From Nitrospirota bacterium (GTDB lineage Bacteria > Nitrospirota > UBA9217), in NCBI GenBank assembly GCA_963754875.1, contig CAVWHO010000011.1:1-64000 (forward strand): a stretch of DNA of 64,000 bases, read 5' to 3'. Positions 36,125 through 47,359 of this stretch are shown in pieces. The position numbers and the translations under genes were made by a program. How positions within the stretch are numbered: position 1 is the first letter of the stretch; each line of letters begins with the position of its first letter. The notes below the pieces were generated by a model. It did no database searches. It was given only the letters and a program-made list of their open reading frames with translations, and had not been told where the DNA came from.

Positions 36125-36485
36125 TATGATACATGACTATCATAAAATATTCCATAAGAGACTGTTTTAACATACTGGGGCGGGTATTTCGGGATGAAGA
36201 TTTTAACGAATTCGGAATGAGTCTTTATGAGTTTCAGGAAGCGGCAACCACAACACCTTCAGGATCAGGTAATGCACCTTGACTGGTCAGCTATTATGTA
36301 CAAGCTTCAGGAAAGCTATTGTCTGCACGTTTCAACCGGATTAATTCTTCACTTCTGTTTGGTCGGAGCCCCATGCGGAGCACACATACAAACACGGGTC
36401 GCGATGGGTTGCAACTCGAGCGAATTCGGTTGTAATATTCACATACTACATTGCCCCAGAAGGACATCCCTTAGCCGAATCCGTT

Positions 36486-41687: not shown

Positions 41688-42029
41688 CCTGGGCGGTCTC
41701 CGTAAGCCGCTAACAAGGCCCGCTTATGGCTCTCTCGATTTTATTAATTTTGCAGGGTCAGCCCAATACGTCTAATATTCGTCGCTCGGTTATTGAAAAG
41801 AAACGATTGTTTTTCGACGAACGTAGCACGACGAATATTATTGAGTCAACGTAAATTTGCAATTTGAGGAGGGTATTTTAAGACATATGCGAACAAATAT
41901 ATCTTGAAATTTTATTGATCTGACAGGATGGAAACTTCAACAGCTTCAGACCTTATGATTAAAGTGGCAAGTCCGTCTTAAGGTATATTTGTGTCAGGCA
42001 GACAAAATAGTACCGAAAGGAGACTTGCC

Positions 42030-43100
42030 ATGAATAACCTTAGCAAACTGGATTTCACCGGTCAACACATTTATGTGGGGATGGATGTTCACCGAAAGAG
42101 CTGGAGCATCAGTATTATGACCGAACACAGCGCACATAAGACGTTCTCCCAGCCACCGGACCCTGTGCTCCTGAGCAACTATATGCAGCGAAACTTCCCC
42201 GGGGCAACCTATCATGCTGCTTACGAGGCCGGCTATTCCGGTTTCTGGATCCATGACCAACTCCGCGAGAAAGGCATCGAATGCATGGTAGTAAATCCTG
42301 CCGATGTCCCGACAAAAGACAAAGAACGCGCTGGCAAAACTGATAAAGTGGATTGCCGTAAGCTTGCCCGCTGCCTCAGGAACGGCGAGCTCGAAGGAAT
42401 CTATGTTCCTGCTCGAGTGAAGGTCGAAGACCGCGGTTTGCTCCGGACCCGACGCAACATGGTCAAAAAGCAGGTCCGTTGCAAAAACCAGATCAAGTCT
42501 CTGCTTGCCTTTTATGGTATCCATCTACCAAACGACATTGTTCACAGCAACTGGTCATATAAATTCATCCAATGGATTCAGAGCATTCAAATGGAACGGG
42601 CCAGCGGGAACTACGTTTTTAAAGTCTACCTCTATGAACTGGAACAACTTCGCAGAATCATCACTGCTTTGAACCGACAGATCCGCATCCTCGCCCGAAC
42701 AGATGAGTATAAGACCAATGTGCAGTTGTTAAGGACTGTTCCCGGCATCAGTACGCTTACTGCCATGACGCTTCTTACAGAATTATACAATATCGACCGG
42801 TTCCAGTCGCTCGATAAGCTCGCAAGCTATATTGGTCTTGTTCCTGACACAGACTCCAGCGGAGAGAAAGATACGACGAAGGGCATGACGAATCGAAAGA
42901 ACCGGTTTCTGCGATTCTTGATCATTGAAGATGCGTGGATCGCTGTACGGCAGGATCCGGCGCTTTTGATGGCTTTTGAGCGGCTTACGAAAAAGATGCC
43001 GAAAACCAGGGCCATTATCCATATAGCCAGGAAACTCTTGAACCGTATCAGATACGTTCTTAAGAACCAGAAGGAGTATGTGTCGGCAGTTGTTCAGTAA
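42030..43100 (+). CDS. IS110-family DEDD recombinase/transposase
   Basis: YVGMDVH, AYEAG, KTDKVD, TVPGIS, YIGLVP..DSSG (catalytic Ser region), IARKL; AAGGAG RBS. Confidence 0.95.
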   Translation: MNNLSKLDFTGQHIYVGMDVHRKSWSISIMTEHSAHKTFSQPPDPVLLSNYMQRNFPGATYHAAYEAGYSGFWIHDQLREKGIECMVVNPADVPTKDKERAGKTDKVDCRKLARCLRNGELEGIYVPARVKVEDRGLLRTRRNMVKKQVRCKNQIKSLLAFYGIHLPNDIVHSNWSYKFIQWIQSIQMERASGNYVFKVYLYELEQLRRIITALNRQIRILARTDEYKTNVQLLRTVPGISTLTAMTLLTELYNIDRFQSLDKLASYIGLVPDTDSSGEKDTTKGMTNRKNRFLRFLIIEDAWIAVRQDPALLMAFERLTKKMPKTRAIIHIARKLLNRIRYVLKNQKEYVSAVVQ

Positions 43101-43346
43101 CTTACGGGATTGTGCTGGGACGAATGATCTTTATAGACCTAGTTCATCGTGGGTAACGCTTTCTTTCTTCCTGCAGCCGGATGCATTGTGTCTGCTTACT
43201 TCAGACTGCGTACCCACACTTTAAAACATGACCGAGGAAATGCAGCTGCCTTTATGCTGTAGGCATGTCTGCTGATAAAAGGTTGGTTTTAAAGACTTGT
43301 TCGTCCTGAGAACAAAACCGAAGAAGGGATTACTACGCCAAAAGTA
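43101..43346 (+). ncRNA. Candidate bridge RNA (seekRNA); ends approximate
   Basis: Two stem/internal-loop/stem domains (43149-43217 and 43219-43294) whose loops match the insertion-site flanks and the element end. Confidence 0.7.
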
Positions 43347-43467
43347 GACTTGACCTTTAACATAAAAGGAAGTTTATCAGAGCTAAACGGATCTATTATG
43401 CACATCCATTCAGTTTAGAGAATGCGCGAGATAGAGGATGAAAGAATTCCTCAACAATAAGACATAC

Positions 43468-44389
43468 TTATTTGGACAGCTTTGCAGTAAAGGCGGGAAC
43501 GAACTGCATCACATCGGCCACTACCATCACATCCGCTACTTCGCCGATAGGCGCGTCCTTGTCCTTGTTGATGGCAACTACAAACTCGGAATTCTTCATC
43601 CCGGCCAAATGCTGAATGGCCCCGGAAATGCCGCACGCCACGTAGATCTTCGGCGCCACGGTCTGGCCGGTGGTCCCGACCTGGTGGCTGTGCTCGAGCC
43701 ATCCCGCATCGACCACCGGACGGCTCGCCCCGAGTTGCCCGCCCAGGGCCTTGGCCAGCGCGGCGATGATTGCCACATTTTCTTTTTTCCCGACTCCTCT
43801 GCCGGCGCTGACGATCACCTCTGCGCGCGACAGGTCTACTTCTTTTTTCTGCGGCGGCTCATAGCCGACGAATTCCATAGCCGAAACAGCGTCAGCGAGG
43901 TCGATCTTTTCCACCTGCGGGTTCCCCTGCGGCTTCTCCGCTGAAGTTGAAGGCCCCGGCTTGAATGGTGAGGACCGTCTTCCCCGTCTGCGAGATGACG
44001 GTCCGCCGCAGTTTGGCATTGCAGAGGCCGACTTCGAATTTTCCTTCGTTGATTCCGACGATTTCGGAAACCTGTCCGACCTTGAGCGCCGCGGCCACCC
44101 GCGGGGCCAGGTCCCAGCCATAGGAGGAATGGAGAAAAACGATACAGTCGGGGTTTTCCCGCTTGACTGCTTCAAGCACGATCTTGTTTGTGCAGATCCG
44201 GATTGTACTCTCCGTATTTTTTGGCATCGGCAAAATAGAGTTTGCAGTTGACCCTGGGGAGCTTCCGCTTCGCTCCCGATCAGGACCATTGCCTTGTCAG
44301 CCCCCAGCTTGTCGGCAAAAGCCACGAGTTCATAGCTGGAAGTCAAGGAGGTTTCCTTCCCGGTATTCGCAAATCAGCAGTGCTTTCAT
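43468..44389 (-). CDS. etfA: Electron transfer flavoprotein alpha subunit (several apparent indels)
   Basis: VIVSAGRG, GASRPVVDAGW, QVGTTG, GISGAIQH, AINKD. Confidence 0.93.
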
Positions 44390-44428
44390 TCGATCCTCCT
44401 AACCCGGTCAAACTCAAAAACAGGATTT

Positions 44429-44544
44429 TAACCACAGGCGCCTTTGGCGCACACGGTTAGATTCGAGTCATGGGGTTTTTTGTTGCGACAGGTTTCCCTA
44501 CTACTGTGTTCATCTGTGCGTCCCGTACTCGGGACCCGTGGTTA
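44429..44544. repeat. Degenerate GxxExxY-type inverted-repeat element with nested mini-hairpins
   Basis: TAACCACAG[GCGCCTTTGGCGC]ACACGGT ... ACTGTGTTCATCTGTGC[GTCCCGTACTCGGGAC]CCGTGGTTA in the etfB-etfA gap. Confidence 0.65.
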
Positions 44545-44592
44545 CATCCAGGTTGTCTTTTTGTGTCTTTTCTACCTCATTGTGAAAATTTT

Positions 44593-45372
44593 TTACTTCA
44601 CTACCGTGGTTTTCTCTTTTAAAATGACGAGGAGCCGCTCAGCCATATCGTTCACGTCGCTTTCAAGGAGAATGCCGCTCCCTTTCCTCGCAGGCGCATA
44701 GGCACTGGCCGTGGCAGTCATTTCCTTCTCTTGAAGAAAATCGGTAATTGGGAAAACAAGGAGCTCCTTCTTCTTCGCCTTCATGATATTGGGAAGGGTC
44801 GGATAGCGGGGCGTATTGAGCCCGAGCTGGCAGGTAACCAGCGCCGGCAGGCTGAACTTCACCGCTGCTTTCACGCCCCCCTCCAGTTCCCGCTTTGCGG
44901 TGACGATGCCGTCTGTCGATAGGCAAAACCGACGACTGTAGTGACGCACGTGATGCCCAAGAGTTCTGCTACGATGGCGCCGACCTGAGCGGAACCGCGG
45001 TCCTGGGACTGCATGCCGGTGAAGATGAGGTCGAAGTTTTTGTCGCGGCCAAATCCGGCTATGGTGGAAGCGATCTGCCACGGATCTTTTTGATAGGAGG
45101 CATTGTCCTGGATGTGGACACCCGCGGTCGCACCCCATGGCCAGGGCCTTCTTGATCGGCTCGACGAGCCGGTCAGGCCCGATGGAGAGTACGGTAATGT
45201 CCGGCTCGTTGCCGAGCTTTTCCTTGACTTGCACCGCCTGCTCAACAGCATATTCATCGTACTCGTTCATCCTGAAAGCCAGGTCAGTCTCGTCATACCA
45301 GACGTTGTCCTTGTTGACCTTAAACCGGGATGCCATGTCAGGCACCTGCTTGATGCAAACCAGTATCTTCAT
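44593..45372 (-). CDS. etfB: Electron transfer flavoprotein beta subunit (two apparent indels)
   Basis: MKILVCIKQVPD, ALAMG, GMQSQD, RELEGG, NTPRYP. Confidence 0.93.
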   Translation of the reverse strand: MKILVCIKQVPDMASRFKVNKDNVWYDETDLAFRMNEYDEYAVEQAVQVKEKLGNEPDITVLSIGPDRLVEPIKKALAMGCDRGCPHPGQCLLSKRSVADRFHHSRIWPRQKLRPHLHRHAVPGPRFRSGRRHRSRTLGHHVRHYSRRFCLSTDGIVTAKRELEGGVKAAVKFSLPALVTCQLGLNTPRYPTLPNIMKAKKKELLVFPITDFLQEKEMTATASAYAPARKGSGILLESDVNDMAERLLVILKEKTTVVK

Positions 45373-45373
45373 C

Positions 45374-47359
45374 CTATCCTCCGATTCGTGCGGCGACAAT
45401 CTCAGCCAGATCAAGCGCCTTCAACTTTCCTTCAGCGTCTCCGGTTTTTATTCCATCCTCGATCATGGTGAGACAGAAGGGACAGTTGGAAACAAGCAGC
45501 GGGGCTCCCGTTGCCTGGGCCATTTTTACCCGTGCCACGTTGATTCTCGTCCCGAGCTTCTCCTCGGCCAGAATCCTGCCCCCGCCAGCGCCGCAGCAGA
45601 AGCTTTCGTAGCCTGACTGCTCCATCTCCGTGATCTGCCCGCCTGCCGCCTTGAGAACAGCGCGCGGTTCAACAAAGATGTCCTTGTAGCGCCCCAGGTA
45701 GCAGGAGTCATGGTAGGTGAATTCGAACGACTCCGGTTTGAGCTTCAGCCTGTTGCCGCTGATCAGGCCGTTCACGAAGGTGCTGTAGTGCTCAACATCA
45801 ATCTCCAGCCCGAGGTCCTTGTAATCTCTGCCCAGGGTATTGAAGCAGTGGGGGCAGGTCGTGACGATCTTCTTAACCCCGTACTTCTTGATCACTTCGA
45901 TGTTCTGGGCTGCCACGGTCTGGTAGAGATACTCGTTCCCCATCTTTCGCACTGGTTCGCCGCAGCATTTCTCTTCCTTGCCGAGAATGCCGACCCGGAT
46001 GTTTGCTCCGTTGCAGATCTTGACGAAGCTCCGGGCAATCTCCCGGTTTCTCTTGTCAAAGGAAGCATAACACCCCGCGAAGTAGAGTACGTCCACGTCG
46101 TTGTCCTGCTCCATGATTTTCACGTCGAGCCCTGCGGCCCAGTCGCCGCGGCTGGCGAAGGCGAGTCCGAAGGGGTTGCCGTTCACCTCGATATTGTTGA
46201 CAGCGGTCCGCACCTCGTCGCCGGGGAAGGACCCCTGCATCAGAGAGAGGTTGCGCCGCATTTCGAGGATCTTGTTCACCTGCTCGACACTTGCCGGACA
46301 GATCTCCTGGCATGCTCGGCAGGTGGTGCAGGCCCAGAGGCTGTCCGCGCCGATTGTCTCAACCAGGTCTGCCCCGGGATTGGTGAAAGCCACGTCGCCG
46401 ATCTGCTTTACTATTTTCATGGGAGACAGGGGCTTCCCGGTTACATGGGCCGGGCACCGGTCCTGGCAGCGCTTGCAGGAGGTGCAGGCGTCGGCATCGA
46501 AGATATCTTTCCAGGAGAGATCGGAGACCTTGGCTGCGCCGAACTGACCAGTGCCCTCGTCTTCGAGGTTGATCGTGGCGATCGATCCTTTGGGCGCCAG
46601 ATCAGTGAACAGGTAATTGGCAGAGGTGGTGAAGATGTGCCGCAGTTTTGTGGAGGGGATGATCGCGATAAAACTCATTGCCAGCAGAAGGTGGACCCAC
46701 CAGAGCAGCTTATGAACAAGAGACAGGGCTTCGGAAGTCATGCCAAGGAAAAGCTTCCCGATGACCATGCCGAAAGGAGAAAAGAGCGCCAGGTCTGGAT
46801 TAGTTCTGAGCTCGGTAGCGGCCATCCGCACTCCTTCAATAACGAAACCGGTCACGAGGATGGTAAACAGCAGGCCGTGTATTACATAATCATCTCTTAT
46901 GGTTTCCAAACCTTCAGGCTTGATGAAGAAGCGGCGAACAAGCAACCCGCCGAGCATAAGGATTCCGACAAAGCCGGCTGCATCGAGAGCGAGCGAGAAT
47001 ATTTTGTAAAAAGATCCTTTGAGGAAGGCCAGCCCGAGAACGGGCTGGGTGAAATCCACCTGGGCCATGACGAGGAGCGTGCCGATAAAGAGTATGCCGA
47101 AGCTCCAAAAGAAAAAGGCGTGAAAGAACCCGGGGCCAGGCACGCGGAGCACCCGCACCTGGGCGATCATGTTCTTCAGGAACAGCAAAATTCTCTCAGG
47201 CAGGCGATCGAACCTGTTCAGCGCCTTTCCCTGGCGGTATACGGCGAAACGGCGGTAAAAGCCGTAGAGAAACGCAGCAACAGCAAGAGCAAAGATGAAG
47301 TACATGGGCACTACGACGCCGTGCCCTACATTCCAGTATATTTCCCGGGTAGCTTCCAT
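45374..47359 (-). CDS. fadF: Membrane Fe-S oxidoreductase, FadF/ETF:menaquinone oxidoreductase-like
   Basis: TM domain with His residues, two CxxCxxCxxxCP motifs, CCG domains (KCCGEP, CCGAGGG, CPFC); directly upstream of etfBA. Confidence 0.8.
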   Translation of the reverse strand: MEATREIYWNVGHGVVVPMYFIFALAVAAFLYGFYRRFAVYRQGKALNRFDRLPERILLFLKNMIAQVRVLRVPGPGFFHAFFFWSFGILFIGTLLVMAQVDFTQPVLGLAFLKGSFYKIFSLALDAAGFVGILMLGGLLVRRFFIKPEGLETIRDDYVIHGLLFTILVTGFVIEGVRMAATELRTNPDLALFSPFGMVIGKLFLGMTSEALSLVHKLLWWVHLLLAMSFIAIIPSTKLRHIFTTSANYLFTDLAPKGSIATINLEDEGTGQFGAAKVSDLSWKDIFDADACTSCKRCQDRCPAHVTGKPLSPMKIVKQIGDVAFTNPGADLVETIGADSLWACTTCRACQEICPASVEQVNKILEMRRNLSLMQGSFPGDEVRTAVNNIEVNGNPFGLAFASRGDWAAGLDVKIMEQDNDVDVLYFAGCYASFDKRNREIARSFVKICNGANIRVGILGKEEKCCGEPVRKMGNEYLYQTVAAQNIEVIKKYGVKKIVTTCPHCFNTLGRDYKDLGLEIDVEHYSTFVNGLISGNRLKLKPESFEFTYHDSCYLGRYKDIFVEPRAVLKAAGGQITEMEQSGYESFCCGAGGGRILAEEKLGTRINVARVKMAQATGAPLLVSNCPFCLTMIEDGIKTGDAEGKLKALDLAEIVAARIGG

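Follow-up and report, generated by a model that had tools for sequence, protein, structure and literature searches.

An IS1111-type element in Nitrospirota whose right end encodes a predicted bridge RNA directed to the core of a repeated, candidate recombination site

The window analysed in the present study, that is, the whole stretch of 64,000 nucleotides of Nitrospirota DNA, contains at 41950-43368, with an AG core, what its sequence identifies as an IS1111-type member of the IS110 family with an intact recombinase gene. Very probably, a predicted bridge RNA with two loops is encoded in the right end of this intact element and would direct the recombinase into repeated sites at their CTTC-AG-GAAG core; these sites likely serve as crossover points in an integron-like array of gene cassettes. 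We infer that the element is intact and programmable. The RNA mechanism itself is already known and published, as the subterminal repeats, the 7+3 end rule and the guide order are standard for IS1111. The anatomy of the element given in a preliminary description of this DNA stood, although that description had overlooked the subterminal inverted repeats, the predicted circle-junction promoter, the left donor guide, which is short, and what kind of sequence the target is.

Boundaries of the element and its recombinase

Excision of 41950-43368 leaves CAGCTTC-AG-GAAGTTT. The same genome (G000) carries a second full copy on contig C16, with three differences from the window copy, and a left-end stub of 163 bp on C22, and all three are flanked by CTTC-AG-GAAG. 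Identity to the window copy begins at CTTCAG in both C16 and C22 and stops at AG-GAAG in C16. The flanks common to the three copies, together with the single AG of the uninterrupted repeats, which serve as evidence of the empty site, indicate insertion at a 2-nt core without target duplication. The boundaries and the AG/CT core of the preliminary description were thus confirmed by the second full copy and the C22 stub, and the alignment of flanks of other copies that it had proposed returned the same boundaries and flanks. A search for an empty orthologous site used the neighbouring gene, presumably electron-transfer-flavoprotein-like; no repeat was found in 14 loci, and the DNA of relatives with this gene has nothing in common with that of the window over the roughly 90 bases closest to the junction. 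The two genes adjoining the element (window 44346-45414, minus strand), which we take to resemble electron-transfer flavoprotein subunits, appear frameshifted or split in the list of open reading frames.

The subterminal inverted repeats ATGATTAAAG and CTTTAACAT pair with a 1-nt gap and are extendable to about 18 bp, forming an imperfect repeat. The left end measures 80 nt and the right non-coding end 268 nt. From 182 homologous loci, 95 non-redundant records were parsed, with 22 records that reach the gene end failing the pattern (truncated, interrupted or distant); right ends were about 250-290 nt long in 72 of the 95. In 17 others (L001-L011, L021, L112 and L115-L117 among the locus labels used here), the right end reaches 440-470 nt, an extra length of about 200 nt, and a GC-rich segment resembling a hairpin is inserted between the donor loop and the inverted repeat. 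Neither the element nor the long right end of L001 had a match in Rfam. A modelled circle joins the ends into a predicted TTGACC-17-TATGAT promoter. The junction pattern TTGnnn-17-TATGnT occurred in 21 of 56 unique junctions, and TTGCTT, which the pattern excludes, was seen by eye in many others. A promoter scan of the linear element gave one match versus 2.2 expected, in line with a promoter that would come into being only upon circularisation. Contigs of four runs contained no circle joint, nor any piece that spans the element.

The recombinase scored 207.7 bits on NF033542 (IS110 family RNA-guided transposase; cut-off 140) and combines the DEDD RuvC-like domain with the Transposase_20 domain and its catalytic serine, as is diagnostic of IS110. 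The catalytic residues D19, E66, D105 and D108 are present, as is S277, which aligns with the serine of YESG in IS621, and GLVPDTDSSG fits the IS1111 motif GL-P----SG. The Pfam domains, NF033542, the catalytic residues and the IS1111 layout all agree with the original IS110/IS1111 assignment. ISEc45 (E 3e-26) and ISSso6 (E 5e-26) scored better than IS4321 and IS5075, and the plasmid and phage collections held no close relative of the transposase, the best being about 31-35% identical. A second, distant IS110-family element (24% identity) is present in three copies in the genome (G000:C20:376671-377651, C5:130756-131736 and C15:184767-185747).

Table 1. Positions in the window of the features of the element, its predicted RNA and its target
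Feature	Positions	Strand	Basis
Left part (arm and CTTC-AG) of the ~90-bp target repeat receiving the element	41871..41949	+	
AG core, left junction (CT on the bottom strand, as in IS621)	41948..41949	+	Same in C16 and C22
Left terminal extension AGACCTT, 7 nt, left-donor side; AC pairs with the target-loop handshake	41948..41954	+	
-10 hexamer TATGAT of the predicted circle-junction promoter, overlapping the left inverted repeat	41954-41959		
Left subterminal inverted repeat ATGATTAAAG(TGGCAAGT)	41955..41974	+	
IS110-family DEDD recombinase, 356 aa	42030..43100	+	PF01548 and PF02371; NF033542; IS621/ISCro4 alignment
Target-binding loop of the predicted bridge/seek RNA	43149..43217	+	Fold; homolog pairing
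5' target guide TTTCTTC-CT, complementary to AG-GAAGAAA (right flank, top strand)	43164..43172	+	
3' target guide TTACTTC-AG (identical to the left flank) and handshake AC	43196..43206	+	
Predicted donor-binding loop domain	43219..43294	+	Centroid fold; homolog pairing
Left donor guide, short and degenerate: CCGAGGAA and AT linker	43232..43241	+	
Right donor guide ATAAAAG and handshake GT	43275..43283	+	
Right subterminal inverted repeat (ACTTGAC)CTTTAACAT	43347..43363	+	
-35 hexamer TTGACC inside the right inverted repeat	43350-43355		
Right extension AAA (3 nt) and AG core, right junction	43364..43368	+	
Right flank GAAGTTT, rest of the repeat core	43369..43375	+	
Second, uninterrupted target repeat, same orientation	36180..36265	+	

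The target repeat and a candidate gene-capture system

The near-palindrome CTTC-AG-GAAG, proposed earlier as the target, held as the core; the full programmed target, TTACTTC-AG-GAAGAAA, is longer, and the palindrome is the core of a repeat family of about 90 bp. Elements of this guide class have flanking motifs in common as far as 80 bases upstream. A first repeat profile, built from the reconstructed empty sites of 13 relatives that were picked by eye, with the copies of this genome excluded, found 28 sites at E<0.05 in G000 versus one at E 7.9 in the reversed genome, and a second-round profile gave 36 matches at E<0.01 and none in the reversed control. The reconstructed empty site of the window matched a profile of 30 uninterrupted repeats with E 3.5e-9. 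At the junction, the 30-copy profile matched 15 of the 18 elements of this guide class (L002, L103 and L109 missed); 13 of the 15 had seeded the first profile, yet both copies of this genome match as non-seeds. Elsewhere, it matched one of the other 46 elements, weakly, and none of 45 control flanks. Of the 64 family genomes, 60 contained the repeat; outside the family, it gave borderline matches only, in 2 of 94 genomes.

The repeat is located between genes: 25 of the 36 copies have opposite-strand open reading frames to either side, and one copy lies inside an open reading frame. Neighbouring repeats within 10 kb were co-oriented in 13 of 13 cases, and in 56 of 61 in a larger set. The median spacing is 3.4 kb, with modules of 1-4 genes that have their own promoters and a mixed cargo of toxin-antitoxin pairs, sensors, small enzymes and unknowns. 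No consensus fold was found for the repeat (0 pairs), and Rfam matched only tmRNA, tRNA, two c-di-GMP riboswitches and a piece of a group II intron over the repeat loci, leaving the repeat unmatched. The c-di-GMP-I riboswitches (L233:1191-1270 and L234:1505-1581) head modules 140-260 bases from repeats. Two other identities were considered and rejected: attC, because the repeat has no consensus structure, and an IS91 end, as the repeat was near only 5 of 30 Y2-transposase loci. IS91-type elements with a Y2 transposase and an integrase are present at G000:C20:177000-179400, followed by an open reading frame and an attC-like palindrome, and at C21:200600-202000, ending about 15 bases from a repeat core.

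One insertion of the element (L003) is found immediately 3' of a gene for a tyrosine recombinase. Homologs of this recombinase are short (279 aa, PF00589), contain SAM-like and catalytic domains only and fall far below the IntI, XerC/D and XerA cut-offs; on the integron-integrase model TIGR02249, they scored 50.5 and 44.8 bits against a cut-off of 265, outside the range of IntI. The plasmid and phage collections held no close relative (25-29% identity), and the ESM Atlas returned generic integrase names only. The gene was found in 11 of the 64 family genomes, with many copies broken, and not in the other 53. The median number of repeats was 45 in the 11 genomes with the recombinase versus 7 in the 53 without, at most 59 per genome among the matches listed, the related genomes not being independent. 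Downstream of the recombinase gene, a half-site is conserved up to CTTCCT and is followed by unrelated arms: across nine sites, identity was 0.62-0.85 before CTTCCT versus 0.31-0.42 after it. These nine, picked by the motif on the conserved side, comprise 4 from the 11 recombinase loci tried, 2 in G000 and 3 occupied by the element. G000 retains only a 3' remnant of the recombinase gene (the last 42 codons), beside a half-site near tRNA-Thr.

Breakpoints of homology were scored over 857 kb of repeat-rich loci with the element masked. Homology ended within 12 bases of a free core in 11 of 546 cases versus 1.6 expected (0-4 in shifted windows). The proximity of gene ends to cores inflates this enrichment, and a shared IS91-type end probably accounts for two of the 11. 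A 1.8-kb duplicate of 98.5% identity ends at CTTCCTG, and a 4.8-kb block of 94% identity starts there. A toxin-antitoxin module that lies between repeats here was also considered as a cassette, which is unsupported: 14 of its 15 homologs have no adjoining repeat. For another gene, a repeat lies directly upstream in 5 of 16. A search for shared sides among the G000 repeats returned the ends of the element only. This cassette system was not described in a title-and-abstract search of the non-subscription literature.

On the sequence comparisons, we put at about even odds that an integron-like array of gene cassettes crosses over at the core of the target repeat, and we are less sure that the repeats would be the sites of the ~280-aa Xer-like recombinase. 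We likewise put at an equal chance, for and against, the scenario that this Nitrospirota-type family runs integron-like gene capture, with a short Xer-like recombinase, unstructured sites of about 90 bp and a CTTCCTG crossover, and is parasitised at the core by a naturally programmed RNA-guided IS1111-type element, whose loose right-end reading leaves precise left-end stubs there.

A possible but doubtful alternative keeps the element as described and regards its target as dispersed and passive, either a REP- or MITE-like repeat or a common regulatory leader, whose link to the recombinase is incidental. The repeats in 49 genomes where the recombinase was not found are consistent with it, as are the negative result for the toxin-antitoxin module, a promoter-like TTGACA that by eye often follows the repeat, and other guide classes of the clade that by eye target REP-like palindromes ending in GAATGAC. 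Such passivity fits poorly with a repeat that, unlike REPs, has no hairpin, with the constant half-site past the recombinase gene that turns into variable arms at the core, and with near-identical duplicates that break there. To a similarly low degree, the repeats may be junctions of small islands accreted serially by a conventional integrase (attL/attR tandem accretion, CIME-like) and not reshuffled cassettes. The far end of the repeat carries GGGTA-N-GGGTA, which we take to resemble arm-type sites, some arrays lie near tRNA or tmRNA genes, and the spacing, size and own promoters of the modules would suit such accretion; against it, the core does not correspond to the end of a tRNA, the recombinase is a short protein of only two domains, and the arrays are scattered over many contigs.

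The predicted bridge RNA, its guides and the proposed mechanism

The right end, taken as 271 nt, folds at z = -4.0, with none of 200 shuffles as good. The outer stem of the target loop (43149-43159/43208-43217) has a bulged A43156, and the inner stem is GCAG/CTGC; the stem of the donor domain, CTTTAAAAC/GTTTTAAAG, occupies 43219-43227/43286-43294. These stems and the motifs CTTCCTG (43167-43173), CTTCAGAC (43199-43206) and ATAAAAG (43275-43281) were all found where the preliminary description had placed them. The top-strand complement (43164-43172) precedes 43196-43204, giving an IS1111-like guide order. On 30 chosen homologs, 94% of the cells of the two-domain structure were paired, a level that none of 500 shuffles reached, and 10 pairs were changed on both sides; the consensus was taken from the window copy, which makes the slide control lenient. 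In the donor domain, helices 3 and 4 were 89.6% and 99.2% paired, respectively, across the homologs.

The decoding of the guides is confirmed chiefly by covariation across homologs and not by single matches. The left flank matched the 3' guide at a mean of 4.19 of 6 positions versus 1.93 under the null (77 rows, 36 guides; L125, with a mis-parsed end, was removed by hand), and the right flank matched the 5' guide, in the better of two registers, at 5.41 of 7 versus 3.16 (86 rows, 28 guides), each beyond all 10,000 permutations. The two registers of the 5' guide were used nearly equally (44 and 42). In disjoint nearest-relative pairs, in which each protein was used once with a partner of different guide to limit kinship, the cognate flank was favoured in 21 of 24 on the left (0 against, 3 ties) and in 22 of 25 on the right (1 against, 2 ties). 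The right donor guide equalled the element end in 54 of 90 rows, the remainder differing by 1-2 bases. The target-loop handshake was identical to the opening two bases of the left end in all of 84 rows (83 AC, 1 GT), bearing out the AC handshake proposed earlier; it follows the left end in L170 (AT) and mismatches it in L145. The first base of the donor-loop handshake followed the right flank at 0.70 versus 0.36 under the null (34 classes). Some elements (L040, L031 and L028) sit in poorly matching insertion sites. Across the sequences compared, changes in the flanking DNA are thus mirrored in the two target guides, in the right donor guide and in the handshake of each loop, and partly in the left donor guide. 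The loop-flank covariation that the preliminary description had suggested seeking was found at the target guides, the right donor guide and the handshakes, and the permutations and nearest-relative pairs agree with its reading of these guides.

No clear left donor guide had been recognised earlier; a degenerate 8-nt guide is present at 43232-43239, in the slot corresponding to that of IS621, in which an 8-nt left donor guide (A123-C130) is followed by the linker A131-U132 (PMC11208158, in part). CCGAGGAA and ATAAGGTC share three Watson-Crick matches and one G-T. Positions 3-7 of the guide match the left end in 66, 83, 83, 57 and 34 of 84 rows, respectively, and positions 1, 2 and 8 have almost no matches. 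Where the left end has changed, the guide has changed with it in the ACTTT group (14 rows), in L022 and in L170, but not in L154/L155 or L145. From the row matches and these three following and two non-following lineages, we conclude that a left donor guide exists in the sequence and is short. Its weak pairing is probably backed by protein reading of the inverted repeats. An unlikely alternative is that only the target loop works, as a short seekRNA with direct transfer, the donor loop being vestigial and the ends read by the protein through the inverted repeats. The weak left donor guide and the existence of stubs without a right end would agree with it, and target-loop-only RNA dominates and performs one-ended transfer in CazIS110-1 (10.1101/2025.10.25.684509, in part) and suffices for ISEc11 (PMC11187229, in part); against it, conservation and covariation with the DNA extend to the stems and handshake of the donor loop and to the right donor guide. 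As for chance or shared ancestry as the source of the loop-flank matches, single 6-nt matches do arise in 5-8% of shuffles, but the permutation tests contradict this and the pair test refutes it, leaving a negligible probability. In the shuffled controls, the 6-7-nt matches of the preliminary description were weak singly (frequencies of 0.075, 0.047 and 0.017; 0.0026 for CTTCAGAC) and held jointly, the three together occurring in none of 5000 shuffles.

Related elements differ in their targets. The largest sister group (L058, L083-L096, L110, L119, L123 and L133-L141) targets palindromes ending in GAATGAC, which we take to be REP-like, and has a GG core at the right junction and AG at the left. 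Another group (L014, L016, L017, L025 and L127), with the guide TAACCT-AG-CATAAAA, inserts about 40 bases upstream of ACT[TA]CAGGAAG in an apparently related repeat, in which only L017 scores on the repeat profile, weakly (E 0.23); re-targeting within the same kind of site is possible on these sequences. In the right end of L170, the 5' half of the target loop is tandemly duplicated (GGTTTGTGACTGCAGCCCGA twice), and that of L114 is interrupted by a REP-like palindrome carrying the element's own target sequence.

A set of 24 left-end fragments with an internal break was chosen, with contig ends and duplicates left out. In 8 of these stubs, the break falls at AG or GG and the next 7 bases agree with the right guide of the nearest relative at 5 or more positions, versus 0.72 expected. 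The eight include C22 of G000 and L161, L163 and L164, which have one hot spot in common at three different sites. The recombinase may sometimes use an internal AG instead of the right end, and stubs in which the left end is joined at an internal AG to the correct right flank are probably due to such loose reading of the right end. One-ended transfer by target-loop-only RNA in CazIS110-1 (10.1101/2025.10.25.684509, in part) and alternative circles of ISPpu9 (PMC12288879, in part) have been reported; stubs like these were not described in the non-subscription literature searched by title and abstract. Additional, decayed left-end relics of the element are present at G000:C16:529481 (minus strand), C20:396606, C13:175410-175530 and C21:51099-51204, and those on C16 and C20 sit at the repeat core.

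Considering these results, we propose the following scenario, based on IS621 and ISEc11 (see also PMC13626964, in part). The element would form a circle, and the promoter made by its joined ends would transcribe the gene and the RNA. The target loop would open both target strands, which would be cut at the AG/CT core through S277, and the handshake pairs would favour insertion. Landing in the repeats would place the element between genes, with dozens of landing sites per genome, and there it would block or hitch-hike on cassette exchange. The homologs amount to a natural library of guides paired with targets, from which the rules of IS1111-type recombinases could be derived: the guide variants number 36 on the left and 28 on the right, most of the proteins that carry them are 50-100% identical, and the set includes a register slip of 1 nt as well as a left donor guide of minimal size. 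Furthermore, reading the guides exposed an unannotated repeat system in most genomes of the family. If the repeats are recombination sites, guide decoding may offer a route to unknown site-specific recombination systems, and the strategy of IS1111-attC elements would have arisen again on a different cassette platform.

Comparison with known systems

The element shares all the IS1111 traits listed for the seekRNA elements ISEc11, ISKpn4, ISPst6 and ISPa11 (Siddiquee et al., 2024; PMC11187229, in part), namely a downstream non-coding region, subterminal repeats of 11-13 bp with 7-nt left and 3-nt right extensions, a top-strand complement before a bottom-strand match, the GL-P----SG motif and a predicted junction promoter. 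It differs from them in its protein of 356 aa, compared with the 330-350 quoted there (PMC11187229, in part), in its imperfect inverted repeat and in its target class; from the IS1111 elements IS4321 and IS5075, its protein differs in being only 22-23% identical. With IS621 (Durrant, PMC11208160; Hiraizumi, PMC11208158; both in part), it has in common two internal loops, a CT core, a bulged A in the outer stem, an 8-nt left donor guide with linker, handshake dinucleotides and the catalytic D-E-D-D and serine. Unlike in IS621, the RNA is encoded at the right end, with the element read in the opposite orientation, the left donor guide pairs at only about 3-5 positions, and the protein similarity is remote (E 1e-4). 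The N-terminal motifs G[ML]DVHK and [YF]EAG are shared with the ISCARN28/ISEc45/ISSso6 lineage, ISCARN28 being one of six elements with a predicted bridge RNA (PMC11208160, in part). Identity to this lineage is only about 27-30%.

As an RNA-guided IS1111 element inserting at a fixed base of a cassette recombination site, here a candidate one, the element resembles the IS1111-attC group. That group (ISKpn4 and ISPst6) was reportedly described by Tetu and Holmes in 2008 and by Post and Hall in 2009. The site in the present study, unlike attC with IntI, is unstructured and about 90 bp long, with a CTTCCTG core and an Xer-like recombinase. With integrons (IntI, attI, attC and CALIN) and tandem island arrays, the system has in common that co-oriented repeats separate short modules of genes, that the site next to the recombinase is distinct and that arrays persist without the enzyme. 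It is unlike integrons in having no hairpin, in a recombinase that reaches about 50 bits on the integron-integrase model with its cut-off of 265, and in a recombinase gene that points towards the site.
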